DNA of 20,000 nucleotides from IMG/VR virus record IMGVR_UViG_3300024272_000072; one strand, given 5' to 3'. This document shows positions 236-16,891 of the stretch, in pieces; positions within the stretch are counted from its first letter, which is position 1; every line of letters starts with the position of its first letter. A program made the translations under genes and the position numbers. This DNA comes from an uncultured virus (IMG/VR IMGVR_UViG_3300024272_000072). Lineage: Duplodnaviria > Heunggongvirae > Uroviricota > Caudoviricetes. The notes beneath the pieces were generated by a model. It was not told the origin of the DNA and made no database searches. It was given only the letters and a program-made list of their open reading frames with translations.

Positions 236-1900
236 ATGGCGAATGCGTGATGTATAAATGCAATCTGATATGATTGATGTTATATCAGAACATTGCAGAA
301 TCTTGATAGTTCTGATATTTGAACTGGTGTTGAATATACAGCACCAAACCCACTATGAGACAGAAATTTCGACTATATCAAATACACAGATAAATGTTGA
401 AATACTTGTTGCTTGACGTGAGAAAATGAAATCAACATAATCACAACAAATTGAGTTCTGAAAGATTTGAATCTGACAAGCAATCAAGACAAAATCATAA
501 TCACACGAACTGATTTATTTTGAAGCAACCGAGCAAAAACAGTCGTGAGATATTCAACATCGTGATACCCTTCAAGCAAAACAGATTGAACGCTTGTTGT
601 TGAAGAAACAACGAAAAATCAATATTCTTCAACTTGATACAATCTAACTGTTTCTGATAGTTGAACATATTATTTTTCAGCGTTCGCACTTGATTCAGAT
701 TGAAATGTAATTTGAGCAGCACAAAGCAACATTGCTGTATCTTTGTCAAAAGTATTGACTTTCACATTGAATCAAACACAATCAGTACCTTGAAGTATGA
801 TTACAGCGATTTCTGATGACGCAATCAATATGACACAGCAAGAAGTGATTGATTTCATTTGAGCATACCCAGTCTTACTTGACAATTCTTGAAACGAATA
901 CAAAAAGCTAAACCCTTTGAATTTCCAACAATTTGAAGATTGAACAGACGCAAGTTCATATACAGCTTCAACATCATACGATGTGATGATAAAATTTCCA
1001 AGAAGATGATACAAAATCAGCACAACGAACAATATCACAACATTCACATTGACTGATAAACAGAATGACCCAGAATATTGCTACGCACCATTTCAAAGAC
1101 TTTCAAGCTGAACATTATGAAACAGCAATGCAGTATATACAAATGCGTCAGCTTTCTATCTTTGAGCATATAAATGATACGCAAATTCAAATATTTTGAG
1201 AAGTCGATACAACAAAACGCCAACAGCTTCACAAACAATTTGAACATTCTCTTGATACGCAAGAAATCATTGAAATCTGCGATGAATCACAGAATTTATG
1301 CAAGAATTCTATCTTGAATTGTGTTTTATGGCGATATACAAAACAACAGACGCACAAAGTTCAATTTGACAATGATATGTATGATGAAGTTCAGCACCAA
1401 CATCGTGAACAATGACATACAATAAATGAATGACATATTGAACAAGTTCAACGACACAATGTATGAAATTCTTATGAATAGAAAATCGATATTGATGAAT
1501 TTGGGAGTGGGTGAACTGACGATGACAGACTTCTGCGTGAGTTCATATTTCAATACCTACAACAACGTGAGACAACAGAACTTCGACATATAGTTATACG
1601 CCTACTTGATACACAACAGTTTGAAGCATATCGCCAACATCTTGAAGTTATATCACGAAAGTATTATGACACACGTATTGATGATTCACGCCAACAACAA
1701 CTTGATGAAGTGAAACGACATACTTCACAGATTACTCTCGGCGGGCTTCGGGTTCTCGTGTGGCGGTATTCGGTGGTGCGTGGGGTGACGGTGCGAGATG
1801 TGGTGCTTTCTGTTGGTATTTGATTGGTGCTTCGTCGAATTCTTACTCTACTTTCGGTGCTCGCTTGATGTTCTTGCCGAATTGAGATTTATCTGTATAA
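236..1900 (+). CDS. DGR target protein, 554 aa: FN3-like domain plus C-terminal C-type-lectin-fold (Mtd-like) domain carrying the VR; likely receptor-binding/tail protein
   Basis: Open from ATG 236 to TAA 1898-1900 with TGA=Gly. FN3-like segment ITWTD..NWAKTVVRYSTSGYPSSKTDG..GTYYFSAFA. CLec-type motifs KFLGIENWYGGIWEWVNG, GFTPTTTGGSETTYFTDY, GGAWGDGARCGAFCW and FGARLMF. The 3' end matches the TR. Confidence 0.9.
1730..1873 (+). repeat. DGR variable repeat (VR), 144 bp
   Basis: Ungapped alignment to 2127-2270 gives 32 mismatches, 31 of them opposite a TR adenine. The one non-A mismatch is near the 3' end (IMH/IMH*-like position). Confidence 0.97.
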
Positions 1901-1911
1901 TCAAAAACAAA

Positions 1912-2061
1912 ATGGAAATCAAAATCACAATTGAAACAATACCAAAAGAAAAAATATATGAAATGACAGAAGATTGAATGAAAGAATCTGAAAACGAAAA
2001 AGTCGAAATGACAATCAAAGAATGAGATGATTGAGAAATCATCATCGAAAAAGATGAATAA
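1912..2061 (+). CDS. Small acidic hypothetical protein (49 aa) between VR and TR
   Basis: MEIKITIETIPKEKIYEMTEDGMKESENEKVEMTIKEGDDGEIIIEKDE*, with the A-rich leader typical of other genes here. Confidence 0.65.
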
Positions 2062-2126
2062 AAATATGGGTATTAGATACTGATATTAGAAATTCCACGT
2101 TTGTGCCAAAATCTAAAAGTGAAAAA

Positions 2127-2270
2127 AATTACACTCAGCAGAATTCAAGTTCTCGTGTAGCGAAATTCAGTGGTAAATGGAATAACAGTGCGAAATGTGG
2201 TGCTTTCTATTGGAATTTGAATAATACTTCGTCGAATTCTAACTCTAATATCGGTGCTCACTCAATGTTC
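2127..2270 (+). repeat. DGR template repeat (TR), 144 bp
   Basis: Adenine-rich copy of the VR (AAT/AAC/AAA/AGT codons at variable positions), lying directly upstream of the RT gene. Confidence 0.97.
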
Positions 2271-2430
2271 AAAAAATTCTTGATATGGAATATGATGTTT
2301 CACCGACATCATATTTCGAAATTAAAGCTCATATCTGATACCCTGGCTCTTGCCAAAACATAGAAACGTTTTATTTGGAGTCGTGCAAGTAAGAAATGAA
2401 AACTCGACCGTAAAGAACATCAACAAAAAA
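2271..2430 (+). ncRNA. DGR RNA 3' spacer (structured region between TR and RT)
   Basis: Perfect 10-bp stem AATATGATGT (2289-2298) / ACATCATATT (2306-2315). CCCTGGCTCTTGCCAAAAC at 2341-2359 resembles motifs I recall downstream of other DGR TRs. Confidence 0.5.
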
Positions 2431-3534
2431 ATGAAAACTTATGACAATTTATGGAATAAAATTATTGATAAAAACAACATATTGAATGCACACTACAACG
2501 CAAAAAAAGACAAATCGCATTATCAAGAAGTCAAGATGGTCGAATCAAATCTTGACTTTTTTATAAATGAAATACACGAAATGCTGAAAAACAAAACATA
2601 TATCATTGAAGACATTGACTATTCAACGTCTGTGATAAATGACAGCTGAAAAGAAAGAGAATTGCGAAAATTGAACTACTACCCACACAGAATCATACAA
2701 CGAGCAATTATGCTACAATTAGAGCCAATTTTTATGGAAGTATTATGCAATCACGTGTGTGCAAGTCTGAAAAAAAGATGAATTCATCACGCATTCAAAT
2801 TGACGCAAAAATACTTGCAAGATGAATGACACACAACATATTGTCTGAAAATCGATGTGAGAAAATTCTACCCAAGCATAGACCACGAAATATTGAAGCA
2901 ATTATTGAGAAGAAAAATCAAAGACAAAGATGTGCTTGAAATTCTTGATATGATTATTGACAGCTACCCTTGAACAAAATGAGTGCCAATTTGAAGCTAT
3001 CTTTCACAGTATCTTGCGAATTATTATCTTGCATATTTCGACCACCGAATGAAAGAAGAAGCGAAATGCAAATACACAGTCAGATATATGGACGACATCA
3101 TCGTTCTGAATGAAAGCAAAACACGACTTCACGAAACATTAGACAAAATCAGAGAAGAACTTTCAGATTTGAAACTTGAAATCAAATGAAACTATCAGAT
3201 TTTTCCAGTCGATAAAAGATGAATTGATTTTGTTTGATATAGATTTTTTAGAAATTTCACATTGTTGAGAAACTGAACAAAAAAGAAAATGAAGAAAAGA
3301 TTGAAAGAAATCAAAGATGAAAAAGCTGACAAACACAAGCTTTTGAATTACAATGAACGGTGCAGTATAAACAGCTACGTTTGACGAATGTTGAGTTGTA
3401 ATCATTACAGATTATTTATGAAATACATTTTGCCATTGATTCCAAGTCTTGACAGATATTATTTTTTTGTTTTATCACATCGCAACGAGAAAAAATTGAA
3501 AAAATATCACGAAAAATTGATGAGTAAGATATAA
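2431..3534 (+). CDS. DGR reverse transcriptase, 367 aa
   Basis: With TGA=Gly and CGA=Trp: GKEREL..YYPHRIIQWAI, YCLKIDVRKFYPSIDH, GVPIGSYLSQYLAN, FDHWMKE, RYMDDI, GIDFVGY, SYVGW. ATG 2431, TAA 3532-3534. Confidence 0.96.
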
Positions 3535-7013: not shown

Positions 7014-7497
7014 ATCTCAAATCTTTACAAGCCCAGATTTCTCTTTTATATGCAGAACATCGATATATATTCACATCATTGACATAAATATAAACTCTTG
7101 CTTGGTCTGATAAATCTTCATCAGCCAATTCGTTCGATAAATTTACAGATTGCCCCCTTGCAATAAAATCAACTGTGTCTTTGATTCATTCAATGTTTGG
7201 AGTTTCTGAATAATAAATATTCAAATCTGCTTCTTTACATTCATCTTTACAGACTACTTTCACAAATTCAGATTGTTCAGCTGAAAATAATTCCGTGATT
7301 CTATCAATTCTTGCTTGAACAACATTTCTCATTTTTTGAGTTTTTGTTGAAACATAAGTTGAAGATGTTGAATTTGACGTTGTTGAAGTGTTTCAATCTT
7401 TCGCAAGACTGTTCAATATTCAACAAACAAAGATGAAAACAATCACTCGAAATCGCCATTTCTTATGCAATGGCTTTTTTGCCTTTTCTTCTGCCAT
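7012..7497 (-). CDS. Membrane-anchored surface protein (161 aa); possible superinfection-exclusion protein
   Basis: MAEEKAKKPLHKKWWFWVIVFIFVCGILNSLAKDGNTSTTSNSTSST...: the familiar KKPxxKKWWFW anchor plus an S/T linker. Only reverse-strand gene found, next to the recombinase. Confidence 0.8.
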
Positions 7498-7526
7498 TTT
7501 GAACGACTTATGATATAAATGAAATC

Positions 7527-7554
7527 AATATACAGAATCACTTTCGAATGTCAA
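7527..7554 (-). promoter_or_regulatory. Sigma70-like promoter for the reverse-strand gene
   Basis: Minus strand TTGACA-N16-TATATT, about 30 nt upstream of ATG 7497. Confidence 0.6.
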
Positions 7555-7558
7555 TAGA

Positions 7559-7592
7559 TTGACATTTGACAAAAAAAATATATAAATATACT
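7559..7592 (+). promoter_or_regulatory. Probable promoter for the recombinase gene
   Basis: Tandem TTGACA at 7559 and 7566, followed by TATAAA (7581) and TATACT (7587); divergent from the reverse-strand promoter. Confidence 0.5.
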
Positions 7593-7649
7593 CGTTGACA
7601 TAAGCTTATGAAACACACAAATCTTTTTATATGCTTATGTTTTTTATCA

Positions 7650-8591
7650 ATGAATGAATTTATAGAAATATTACAACAACGACGTGATTATGAAGAAAAC
7701 GTCAGAAATCACAATTCATATATCAATCGCTTCTATATTATAAGAAACTTCTGAAAATATCTTGTTTCTATCAAGCCACAATTCAAGCTTGAAGAAATCG
7801 AACTATATGAAATCATTCAATATCTTGTATATTACAGAACGCACAAAAATTGCAGATGAACAATACCGAGCAGATGTGCTGAATACAATGTGATTTGTGC
7901 AATCAGAAATTTTTTCAGATTCTGCAATATTCTTTGAATGCGTTTGAAATTTAATCGAGAACAGATTCCGATGTTCAAACAAGAGCCAGTGAAACGTGAG
8001 CCAATGAGCGAAGAAGATTATCAACTAATGCACACAGCAATCAGATTGTTTTCAAAATCAGAAGAAATCAGATTGCGTGATGAACTGATGATTGAAATAC
8101 CACGAGAAACTTGATTGAGAAAATCTGAAATTGTCAGATGTAAGTTCAAAGATTTTCACAATGAAAACAGACAATTCAAAGTTCTTGTGAAGTGAAATAG
8201 ATATGAATCAGTATTTTTTTCTGAAAAATTACAGAAAAAAGTTTTTGAATATGAAAACATATTGAATCAGAAATACAAACATCTTGATATTGAAAAGCTT
8301 TTCATTTGTTTATGACAGAAAGAAAAGTGAAAAGAAATCAGTTCTGATTTATTATGAAGACATTTTCTCTTGATTGTGAGAAGAATGAAGAAAGAATGAA
8401 TGATTCCGAAGAACAAAACGCTTTGTCTTCATCAAGAAAGACATTCATTCGCAATGCGTTGTGTTTATTCTTGATTATCACAACAAGCAACAACGAGATT
8501 GATGAGACATTCAGACCCAAAAATCACGCTTCATTATTATCATATGAACGATTCACGATTACTGGATCAATATGATTCGATTCGTGTATAA
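7650..8591 (+). CDS. int: Tyrosine recombinase / integrase (XerC/D-like), 313 aa
   Basis: Catalytic residues in order: ETGLRKSE (R), LVKG (K), HQERHSFA (HxxR), LMRHSDPKITLHYY (H, Y). Confidence 0.9.
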
Positions 8592-8743
8592 AATTCCAAC
8601 AGCGAAAATATCATTAAAAATAAAAAAGTCAAAACTTTGTCATTTTTTTTCGTTTCAAGGCTTCATACCTGCTATTTGAAAATTCAATTAAGAATTGATT
8701 TTTTTCGATTTAATTTTTTTTATAAAAAAAAGTCGTCAAAAAT

Positions 8744-8771
8744 TTGCATTTTTGGAAAATTTTTATATAAT
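8744..8771 (+). promoter_or_regulatory. Sigma70-like early promoter
   Basis: TTGCAT-N16-TATAAT upstream of the structured leader and the early operon. Confidence 0.6.
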
Positions 8772-8774
8772 AGA

Positions 8775-9045
8775 TTTCAGTTAAGTTTGAAAATCGAATG
8801 AAAATGTCTTTGATTGCAAAAAATTGATGACTTTTTTCAAGAGATTATTCGTATCGTCAAGGTTCTACAATTCCGAAGTAGCTTATGTCAACCGATACGA
8901 CAGCAACAAACTTGACTGTCGTTCAATATCACATCATATTTAATTCCGACAAACAAAGATGTTGAAATGAACGACACAACATCTTTGTTCGTCTGAATTG
9001 ATTTGTGTGTAAGATTCGAACGAACAAAGGTTCGAGTCTTTTTAT
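8775..9045 (+). ncRNA. Putative structured regulatory RNA / attenuator leader with antisense segments
   Basis: Stems 8849-8856/8893-8900, 8898-8903/8916-8921 and 8942-8964/8977-8999. Alternative pairings 8917-8925/8968-8976 and 8983-8992/9020-9029. Complementary to 16375-16416 and to 7594-7623. Confidence 0.6.
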
Positions 9046-9047
9046 TT
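9011..9047 (+). terminator. Intrinsic terminator/attenuator hairpin before the first early gene
   Basis: AAGATTCGAAC-GAACAAAG-GTTCGAGTCTT followed by TTTATTT. Confidence 0.65.
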
Positions 9048-9061
9048 AATCACAAAATCAG

Positions 9062-9226
9062 ATGAGAATCAGATGAGTTGTTGCAATAGTTGTGAGCATT
9101 ATTGTGTGAATGTTCACGCCAGCTGGACTATATGTATATACGATTCCGTTTCTCATTTGATGTATGTGATGAAAAAAAGTTCGAAAATTTTATTTCAATT
9201 TTTTCTTCAAGCAAGATGACGAATAA
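9062..9226 (+). CDS. Small membrane protein (54 aa), first early gene
   Basis: MRIRGVVAIVVSIIVGMFTPAGLYVYTIPFLIGCMGGKKVWKFYFNFFFKQDDE*; overlaps the next start. Confidence 0.55.
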
Positions 9227-9947
9227 AAACTATTTCAAATGTTTTCGCTTGTTTCTTGAAACTTGAAAGAAGCTTGATGATTCGATGAAGTGAAAATATT
9301 ATGAATCATTGCTTGAATATTGACTTGATTGAATCAAGCCCACTGATCCAATCATCGACGCGTTGTTGACTTCTGCGATGTATTCGATTGACAAATCAGA
9401 TGAAGAACTGAAAAGAAAATCTGAATCAATGCAATGAAATCAAAACGCAGTCAAGAGCTTTGAAAAGCTATCAAAACAGAAAAAAACAGACAAAAACAAA
9501 AACAAACAGAACGAAACAGAGAAAAACATATGAAGAAAAGAAGTATATGAAGAATATGAAGATAATACAAACAATAATAAAATCATCATAAATGATGATT
9601 CAGAATCAAAAGATTCTGTTCAGTATTGAAATGAAGAAGTGAATAAATGTCTGACGAGAATCAAATCATATAATTGATGACTATTAGATTGAACAGTCAA
9701 AAACAATCGCAGATATGCAAAACTTCTGATTGATAAACTGAACAAACTTGAATCGATTCAAGCTTGAAAATACACACGAGAAGAAACGCTTGACATCATT
9801 CTTCAAGTGATTTCGAAAAACAAATACCACGTTTCGAAAATTACATCAGCAGAATCGATTTATCGCAATCTTGCAGTTCTTATGCAGACGTGCAAGAATG
9901 ACATTTGAAAAGCACAATCGAATCAAATCATTTTACCTACAATTTAA
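9216..9947 (+). CDS. Phage replication initiator / replisome organiser (DUF6291-like N-terminus), 243 aa
   Basis: N-terminal ..KKLDDSMKGKYYESLLEYGLDGIKP..MQGNQNA, then a low-complexity K/N/Q linker containing DNA repeats, then a C-terminal domain. This is lambda O-like architecture at the start of the early operon. Confidence 0.7.
9471..9618 (+). repeat. Iteron-like repeats and palindromes; putative replication origin
   Basis: Six phased 10-bp units with consensus nnnAAACAGA (9471-9530), then palindromes AATCATCAT-AA-ATGATGATT and CAGAATC-AAAA-GATTCTG (9581-9618). Confidence 0.6.
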
Positions 9948-16309: not shown

Positions 16310-16333
16310 AAAGTCGGAAATTCCGACTTTTTT
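16310..16333 (+). terminator. Intrinsic terminator closing the early operon
   Basis: AAAGTCGGA-AAT-TCCGACTTT followed by a T tract. Confidence 0.85.
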
Positions 16334-16364
16334 CAAAAAGATTTCGTTTTGAATCAAAATAATA

Positions 16365-16444
16365 TAATATCATATTGACATAAGATATTCGGAAATTGTA
16401 GAGCGTTGACGATACGTGCGTATTTATCTTCGCTTTCTTTTTTT
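16365..16444 (+). promoter_or_regulatory. Late-operon -10 box and 5' leader containing the inverted copy of 8850-8891
   Basis: TATAAT at 16365-16370 with no good -35; 42-nt element at 16375-16416; a short hairpin and T tract before ATG 16445. Confidence 0.55.
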
Positions 16445-16891
16445 ATGTGAAAAAAGACGAAACAACAAATCAGCAAAAAAAAGCTGAATGATGAAAATGT
16501 TGAGCTTGCGAAATTGATTGCAAAAGTCAGAGACAAATACACTTGTCAGCATTGTTGAAAAACAGCAAGACAGACATCAATTCACGCAAGCCACATCATC
16601 AATGAAGCAAGAGACCACAGACTTGCAAGCGATCCATACAACATCAAAGCTTTGTGCTATAATTGCCACATCAATCGACGACACAAAAACCCAATCGAAG
16701 CAAGTCAACGATTCAATGAAAAACGACCTTGAAGATATGATGAACTTCAAGCGAAACACATTGAATATATGAATAAATGAAGCATTGACATCAATCGAAT
16801 GCTTGAAAGAAATCAAGAATTGAGAAAGCAATGTGAAGAAATGAAAATTGATATTTCAAAATTCAAATTCTGACAAAAATTTATTTCATAA
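16445..16891 (+). CDS. NinG/HNH-like nuclease (148 aa)
   Basis: KVRDKYTCQHCG..IHASHI..NIKALCYNCHINWWHKNPIEASQWF. Confidence 0.75.

Follow-up and report, generated by a model that had tools for sequence, protein, structure and literature searches.

A structured leader RNA between the integrase and early genes of an uncultured phage: a possible attenuator and riboregulator

Does the leader RNA that lies between the integrase gene and the early genes of an uncultured tailed phage decide, by the way it folds, whether those early genes are transcribed? The question is raised by a 20,000-nt stretch of DNA assigned to the Caudoviricetes (IMG/VR record IMGVR_UViG_3300024272_000072; hereafter the window), in which a leader of ~270 nt sits between the integrase gene int and the early genes. 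A preliminary description of this leader had reported a cascade of mutually exclusive hairpins, had judged such interlocking hard to obtain by chance, and had read it as terminator/antiterminator logic controlling read-through into replication genes. Our analysis confirms the observation and partly supports the interpretation. We estimate at roughly 55% the probability that positions 8778-9047 are an early-operon leader that acts in cis as an attenuator and in trans as a riboregulator of the late and int messages. By computation we established the transcription signals, the fold, its conservation in four phage lineages, the compensatory changes and the co-variation with a distant target; the coordinates of all features are collected in Table 1.

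To find homologues of the leader, viral, metagenome and genome collections were searched for integrase synteny and for DNA patterns. Four phage lineages were found: the window type (the window, L019, L020, L052 and L010), the L018 type (L018, L049, L054 and L059), L021, and L094, which lies in the complete 34,808-bp virus record G180. A promoter of the TTGACA/TATTAT type stands at the place equivalent to that of the window promoter in L018, L010, L021 and L094. At the other end of the leader, a G+C-containing hairpin followed by a U-run has the make-up of an intrinsic terminator, and its stem is paired in 100% of the alignment cells across lineages, with two one-sided changes. The first early open reading frame (ORF) starts 15-16 nt past the T-run in the window, L021 and L094, and the promoter scan found no + strand promoter between the terminator and 9274. 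Since there is no room for a promoter before this ORF, the early genes lie behind the terminator, which must be passed somehow. Here the terminator lies between the only promoter that could be recognised and the first early ORF, an arrangement by which attenuators are defined.

The genes downstream of the leader are those for a small membrane protein, a DUF6291-like protein and an Erf recombinase. They were not recognised as replication genes, and this part of the preliminary claim was not borne out. The first ORF overlaps the ATG of the next gene (9216) and is conserved at the protein level in L021 and L094; no family match was found for its product. The block 3' of the terminator is thus this conserved 54-codon ORF, hitherto unannotated, and no further regulatory RNA. 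A perfect tandem direct repeat (AATCAGATGAG twice, 9056-9077) spans the start codon of the ORF; the L018 and L094 types retain it, and L021 does so in part. A 184-nt contig of X18, labelled as RNA-Seq complementary DNA and probably DNA, covers 8778-8955 only and was not counted as evidence of expression. The single raw-read RNA run searched, X21, yielded 0 reads and was likewise given no weight.

On the + strand, the region 8779-9048 has a minimum free energy (MFE) of -77.5 kcal/mol (z -5.32), and none of 200 shuffled sequences folded as well; the fold of the - strand gives a z of -3.55. The five pairings of the preliminary description were recovered at their positions, four of them perfect and the long hairpin P3 paired at 21 of 23. 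Their overlaps were also recovered: the 3' strand of P1 shares bases with the 5' strand of P2, the 3' strand of P2 with segment A (8917-8925), and the complement of A (8968-8976) lies in the P3 loop, a pairing hereafter called X1. Likewise, the 3' arm of P3 pairs with the 5' arm and loop of the terminator, a pairing hereafter called X2. In addition to these helices, the leader contains the long-range helix P0 (8779-8789/8907-8917), and X1 gains a second helix in which the linker at ~8929-8935 pairs with the top of the P3 5' arm (8958-8964). The X2 core (8983-8992/9020-9029, 10/10) extends to 8983-8998/9014-9029, a helix computed to be 88% complementary and counted by hand as 15/16 including one G-U pair.

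Each link was then compared as a duplex with 1000 dinucleotide shuffles. The score of X2 (terminator 5' half against upstream sequence) was reached by 4 of them, that of X1 (P3 loop against upstream sequence) by 41, that of P2 (P1 3' strand against downstream sequence) by 2, and that of P0 (5' end against the rest of the leader) by a single one. Each link is unusual by these tests, the stem counts given below less so. An Rfam scan at E up to 1 returned no phage RNA family and nothing near threshold; its six sub-threshold chance matches were to two microRNA families (three matches), snR73, RT-17 and STnc410.

In the model-based alignment of the homologues, 92.8% of 694 cells are paired over 86 pairs, and five pairs carry double changes. 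By helix, P0 is paired in 97% of the cells and P3 in 95%, P3 with one double change and four one-sided changes. The hairpin inside the antisense module, which P1 encloses, is poorly conserved (78-85% paired), and this fits a segment constrained by pairing with something else. When the window is compared with L021, the linker and terminator are 97.9% identical and A plus P3 82.9%, and coding DNA is less conserved (int 71.9%, the small ORF 79.2%). When it is compared with the L018 type, on the other hand, the flanking genes are 95-97% identical and the leader only ~85%, which looks like the pattern of a fast-evolving specificity determinant.

The wider searches gave the following results. A 16-mer scan of viral contigs returned 13 loci, four of them true homologues, and a scan of metagenomes returned 24, of which 10 were true and all belonged to lineages already found. 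A three-part pattern matched five loci in viral contigs, with no new homologue, and seven in genome contigs of unrelated phyla, which were taken as chance without alignment. With the covariance model R1, the RNA was found in one of 151 genomes of the nearest genus, namely G001, a genome of ~1.2 Mb in which similar DNA is present in fragments. L022, whose integrase is 42% identical, gave no match to R1, and its gene layout downstream is different. Within the L018 type, the metagenome contig L059 carries the leader with unrelated sequence upstream of ~8815, so that the promoter, P0 and the start of the RNA are missing; the contig is either a truncated copy or a product of natural recombination. 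The G001 contigs C33 and C58 (L010, L011) end inside the P3 inverted repeat, at 8977 and 8997. The G001 contigs are ~87% identical to the window on the left side and 99-100% on the right, and the contig ends suggest an assembly break at the hairpin between mosaic phage variants. The notion that conservation begins exactly at the transcription start was dropped as an artefact of a short query.

The competing pairings are themselves conserved. P2 is paired in 97-100% of the cells in the two alignments. X2, an alternative pairing that sequesters one arm of the terminator, is 88-93% paired in the four lineages. Two of its pairs carry double changes, UA to AU in the L018 type and CG to UA in L021 and L094. 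X1 is paired in 97.4% of the cells, a level reached by none of 500 shuffles. It is invariant in three lineages, and in L094 both partners have changed, GUCGUUCA/UGAACGAC becoming GUCUGAC/GUCAGAC through three adjacent double changes, a replacement that keeps complementarity and not sequence. In every lineage, the first bases of the P3 3' arm recur as a short copy (CAACAUC-like) in the linker after A, and X1 therefore extends into its second helix, rivalling the top of P3. Compensatory changes, the check on the preliminary description that homologues can provide, were thus present in X1 (three pairs) and X2 (two pairs), and possibly in P2 (one pair).

The order in which these pairings can arise was followed by folding prefixes of five sequences (the window, L052, L018, L021 and L094). 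In all five, the two-helix X1 hairpin is the MFE fold of the prefix that ends at the P3 loop. In growing-chain folding, P3 becomes the best fold ~12 nt after the X1 stage; in constrained folding, the X1 hairpin appears by itself when X2 is forced. A pairing between A and the terminator, seen in the window prefix fold at 9029-9034, was dropped, since by reading it is not kept in the L018 type.

We infer that alternative structures decide termination, and likewise infer which RNA is the input and in which direction each effect runs, as follows. Transcription would start at the strong conserved promoter and stop by default at the terminator, 15 nt before the early ORF, giving an RNA of ~270 nt. 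With P1 intact, segment A would be left free. Nascent A (8917-8935) could then pair with the P3 loop and the top of the P3 5' arm through X1, P3 would be delayed, and the free P3 3' arm would form X2 with the terminator 5' arm, leading to read-through. If P1 were opened, P2 would capture A, and P3 and the terminator would form. A natural candidate for opening P1 is the late leader, which would pair with the antisense module, of which the P1 5' strand forms part. Another possibility is that completed RNAs capture A of nascent ones in trans with their P3 loop, in a manner similar to that of phage P4.

The antisense segment that the preliminary description had placed inside P1 proved to be real. 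Positions 8850-8891 are the reverse complement of 16375-16416 at 37 of 42 positions, and this target lies 7.5 kb away in a different (late) operon. Upstream of 16375 lie a terminator-like hairpin with a T-run (~16315-16335, by reading) and a TATAAT box (16364-16369), and the start codon (16445) of the HNH/ParB-methylase/terminase operon follows the target at ~30 nt. This makes the site the 5' leader of the late message. The other three lineages have homologous late leaders (G063, G064 and G180). When the four modules were compared with the four late leaders, the cognate partner was the best in 4/4 rows and 4/4 columns, with 36/41, 36/42, 33/41 and 37/44 matches as against 29-33 for non-cognate pairs; cognate duplex energies were the best in 3/3 lineages. 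Lineage-specific words are common to module and late leader, the variable centre included, and the module is antisense in all four lineages. The module thus co-varies with its late-leader target in 4/4 lineages.

Three operons share a further motif. The 9-mer TGACATAAG occurs in exactly three copies in each of four phage records, as compared to 0-1 for a control pattern; its sites are the int leader, the early leader (inverted) and the late leader, and the int site is the extreme 5' end of the int message. In addition, the 5' arm of the int-leader hairpin (7594-7606) complements 8880-8892, the most conserved block of the early leader, at 13 of 13 positions. The int-leader hairpin has a z of -3.0 to -4.0 at four loci (window 7594-7649, L018 200-262, L021 2445-2508 and L022 2437-2500), the last beside the 42% identical integrase. 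In L094 the hairpin is kept and the U-run is missing. It is possible that this hairpin is an attenuator or a translational block on int. The module would pair with the leader of the late (packaging) messenger RNA and, over 13 nt, with the 5' arm of the int-leader hairpin. Together with the competing folds, these pairings mean that the RNA would couple three operons, early, late and int.

A number of results weigh against a leader that switches in this way. The terminator conformer is the MFE fold by 10.0, 12.7, 17.6 and 14.6 kcal/mol in the sequences folded, and any switch must therefore be kinetic. The terminator/antiterminator logic of the preliminary description finds support in the leader geometry and in the conserved competing pairings, but not in the energies. 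When X1 is forced, the terminator still forms in 3/4 sequences (the window, L052 and L021), and X2 forms only in L018. X1 touches only the P3 loop and the top 7 bp of P3; instead of competing with P3, it may coexist with it as a pseudoknot. Repeated binding sites for a protein could account just as well for the likeness of the P3 5' arm to the terminator 5' arm. The comparative depth is small, with only four lineages: the covariation in X1 is a single event in a single lineage, and the double change in P2 (AU to GC, L021) is present in the MAFFT alignment A3 and absent from the model alignment A8. As to chance, the leader has four perfect stems of at least 8 where shuffles average 1.5 (reached by 55/1000), which is only mildly unusual; the total number of paired bases in this count was reached by 14/1000, and its number of conflicting stem pairs is not unusual (reached by 191/1000). 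In trans, the fold of the late leader is not unusual either (z -0.26), and a complementarity of 8831-8839 to the late start-codon region was dropped as not specific to the cognate pair. Finally, the int match is invariant, with no covariation, and the 509-nt query has five other 13-nt matches elsewhere in the window; we therefore treat the int match as a lead.

Several of these results would be expected if the transcript were instead a stand-alone small RNA (sRNA) acting in trans, a reading that we hold to be possible though rather unlikely. The 270-nt RNA would then do no more than regulate the late leader, and perhaps int, by antisense pairing. P3, the pseudoknot between A and the loop, and the terminator would serve stability or shape, X2 would be a by-product of repeated motifs, and the early genes would be reached by constitutive leakage through the terminator or with the help of an unidentified protein antiterminator. 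The dominance of the terminator fold, by 10-17.6 kcal/mol, and its survival of forced X1 in three of the four sequences agree with this. So do the use by X1 of the P3 loop, sterically compatible with P3, the co-variation of module and target in 4/4 lineages, and a count of conflicting stems not above that of shuffles. However, an sRNA of this kind does not explain why the X2 pairing survives two double changes and one gained pair (L018, by reading), nor why the second helix of X1, which overlaps the P3 stem, recurs in 5/5 prefix folds of differing sequences. The early genes, with no promoter room before their first ORF, are a third difficulty for it.

A leader-peptide attenuator is a good deal less probable. 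Here an ORF running from 8798 or 8804 to 8881 (25-27 codons in code 25, in which TGA is glycine, with a tandem TGA in the window) would be translated, and the position of the ribosome would open Pa and P1 and so set the downstream relay. The frame spans Pa, the P1 5' strand and the module, the right place for a sensor. By reading, every lineage examined has an in-frame ATG from which it stays open, and the window, L052, L010 and L018 types share the TAG that closes it. Yet a 27-codon open frame is expected in ~17% of frames (an estimate for this composition), no Shine-Dalgarno-like sequence was seen, and the peptide is not conserved. Between the window and L021, one of the 12 changed codons is synonymous (hand translation); L021 stops seven codons early, and a patch of the L018 type is frameshifted (-1/+1). 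Nor is the tandem TGA kept, its place being taken by TGT GGA in L052, TGA CGA in L010 and AAC CGA in L021. Hand reading of the alignments thus gave no translated ORF with conserved regulatory codons. Protein coding in code 25 across 8900-9000 was likewise rejected, as single-base indels between lineages break the frames.

The least probable explanation, that the region holds DNA-level signals and that the RNA folds are incidental, is disfavoured because X1 and the module/target pairs keep complementarity and not words. The signals would serve as operators bound by a phage regulator that went unrecognised, or as sites of recombination by the adjacent integrase, namely the three copies of ATTCNGACRAACAAAG, the inverted TGTCGTTCA pair, and TGACATAAG...GATACG at three loci. 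The region does adjoin int, and all three motif copies change together (A to T, L018 type), as a change of operator specificity would have it; moreover, TGACATAAG stands at the start points of two promoters, and the window is enriched in ACRAACAAAG-like words, with 20 where 8.6 are expected. On the other hand, module and late leader co-vary through the variable centre of the 42 nt, always antisense (4/4), the X1 change in L094 preserves complementarity and not sequence, the promoter precedes the first hairpin, the T-run follows the last, and no DNA-binding protein was recognised. An identity between phage and host attachment sites was also considered and rejected. When 8592-9100 was searched with BLAST in 61 genomes, the only real matches fell in phage-like contigs of G001; 13 other genomes gave AT-rich matches, at most 60 nt long and mostly upstream of 8778. 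Outside phage-like contigs, no host match to 8778-9047 longer than 32 nt was found in these genomes, and R1 had found the RNA in G001 alone of the 151; there is therefore no attB-like identity.

The gene context of the leader is that of a phage with an unusual genetic code. When the window is read with table 11, it has no ORF above 141 amino acids (aa). TGA is ~3-fold over-represented and TAG is rare, and a dense set of + strand genes emerges when TGA is read as a residue; TGA accounts for 51 of the 554 codons of one window protein, and exchanges with GGA between homologues of the small ORF 9062-9226. The code of the window is table 25, with TGA as glycine. A scan for tRNA and tmRNA found 0 genes. 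Within the diversity-generating retroelement, the variable repeat (1731-1873) forms the C-terminus of the 554-aa protein, and differs from the template repeat (2128-2270) almost only at template adenines. The gene with a likeness to superinfection exclusion (Sie) is the sole clear - strand gene, with a strong promoter-like site at 7554-7527. Over 8300-9400, the window shares 98% identity with G002, a virus record of 35,960 bp that has direct terminal repeats. Taken with this record, the fragments in G001 and the gene set make the window part of a temperate phage of a code-25 host.

Table 1 Features of the window referred to in the text
Feature	Positions	Strand	Description
Leader promoter	8743-8771	+	sigma-70-like, TTTGCA-17-TATAAT, 10/12 matches; predicted start ~8778
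5' domain	8779-8917	+	three-way junction of the MFE fold; closed by P0, holds Pa and P1
Hairpin Pa	~8799-8839	+	MFE fold; 93% of cells paired
P1	8849-8856/8893-8900	+	8/8 paired; 93% of cells paired
Antisense module	8850-8892	+	enclosed by P1; complements the late leader and the 5' arm of the int leader
P2	8898-8903/8916-8921	+	6/6 paired; excludes P1, P0 and X1
X1	8917-8976	+	segment A 8917-8925 with P3 loop 8968-8976, 9/9
P3	8942-8964/8977-8999	+	long hairpin, 21/23 paired, 12-nt loop
X2	8983-9029	+	candidate antiterminator; P3 3' arm with terminator 5' arm/loop
Intrinsic terminator	9011-9047	+	hairpin 9011-9040 (11-bp stem, 8-nt loop), then T-run
First early ORF	9062-9226	+	54 codons, small hydrophobic membrane protein, code 25
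Late-operon 5' leader	16375-16447	+	module target 16375-16416; start codon 16445
int leader	7594-7649	+	5' hairpin, then U-run, directly before int start 7650
Tyrosine integrase (int)	7650-8591
Sie-like gene	7015-7572	-	superinfection exclusion; PHROG E 5e-6
Diversity-generating retroelement	236-3534
Reverse transcriptase	2350-3534		RVT_1, E 5e-23
Holin			gene identified in the window
Erf recombinase			early region
HNH/ParB-methylase/terminase block			late operon

No helix-turn-helix repressor was recognised among the 22 and 20 proteins scanned, nor was any DNA-binding protein; RNA-based immunity is therefore possible. The attenuator and riboregulator proposed above could then be extended to an all-RNA lysis-lysogeny switch that works without a protein repressor in phages of bacteria that read TGA as glycine (of the Gracilibacteria type), an extension that we offer tentatively and would not ourselves bet on. 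In a naive cell, the leader would fold via X1 and X2 and the early genes would be read. As the 270-nt copies build up, their P3 loops would kiss A in trans, X1 would be blocked, and termination and immunity would follow. At the same time, the module would silence the late leader and open the int-leader hairpin, turning the integrase on. The lineage-specific sequences of X1 and of the module/target pairs would define immunity groups, and the identity of ~85% in the leader as compared to 95-97% in the flanking genes is consistent with such groups.

Among known systems, the immunity of phage P4 offers a close parallel. P4 has an untranslated leader with a constitutive promoter, upstream of the early/replication genes, from which a stem-loop RNA is derived that complements another part of the same leader; the outcome is premature termination with no protein repressor (PMC4825925). 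The present leader resembles the P4 CI RNA (seqA/seqB/seqC) in that the P3 loop complements 8917-8925 and termination would fall before the early ORF. Unlike P4, the present leader offers a terminator/antiterminator choice explicitly in cis and carries a long antisense module directed at a late operon 7.5 kb away, and its host reads TGA as glycine; neither P4 CI nor P1 c4 was matched in Rfam at E up to 1. The same source describes IsrK, an sRNA of the Gifsy-1 prophage that ends at a Rho-independent terminator, part of the transcripts reading through into a 45-codon ORF and a downstream regulator gene; in trans, the terminated RNA acts on the longer one and activates translation of the read-through transcript (PMC4825925). 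The likeness lies in a terminator that part of the transcripts would pass into a short ORF (54 codons here as compared to 45), and in a short form that would act in trans. Unlike IsrK, with which Rfam gave no homology, the present RNA has suggested trans targets in the leaders of other operons.

The choice between two folds in front of a first gene has counterparts in plasmids. In the rep leaders of pT181, pIP501 and pAMbeta1, a pre-emptor (antiterminator) fold competes with a terminator just before the first gene, and a complementary RNA that binds an upstream segment tips the choice; in pT181-type plasmids, this regulator is transcribed from the opposite strand of the same leader. A complementary RNA for the upstream part of the leader exists here too, in the late leader (16375-16416). 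In contrast to the plasmids, the promoter scan found no - strand promoter inside 8779-9047, the only - strand promoter-like sites near the leader being at 9156-9127, 8632-8605 and 8380-8351. The complementary RNA would thus be the leader of a distant operon or the leader RNA itself, and the relay has more steps (P1, P2, X1, P3, X2 and the terminator).

Phage antisense RNAs that restrain lytic functions are also known, such as c4 (immI) of P1 and P7 and the paQ and OOP RNAs of lambda. c4 and its targets co-vary between heteroimmune phages, as module and late leader do between the present lineages. c4 acts within its own operon, from which it is processed, and the lambda RNAs are encoded in cis opposite their targets, whereas the present module is encoded in trans and embedded in a predicted attenuator. 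No such element turned up in a limited search of the literature on Gracilibacteria phages and antisense RNA, and we know of no experimentally studied regulatory circuit in phages of candidate-phyla bacteria that read TGA as glycine.

Overall, comparative sequence alone yields here a testable circuit, in which one leader RNA is tied by base pairing to the early, late and int operons. If the switch works as proposed, RNA-based immunity and attenuation of the kinds found in P4, P1 and plasmids of Gram-positive bacteria would extend to a host group far removed from theirs, and a design would be added in which the leader of one operon senses that of another. The leader would then be a compact natural RNA relay with multiple states, which could be tested in vitro with RNA polymerase alone.

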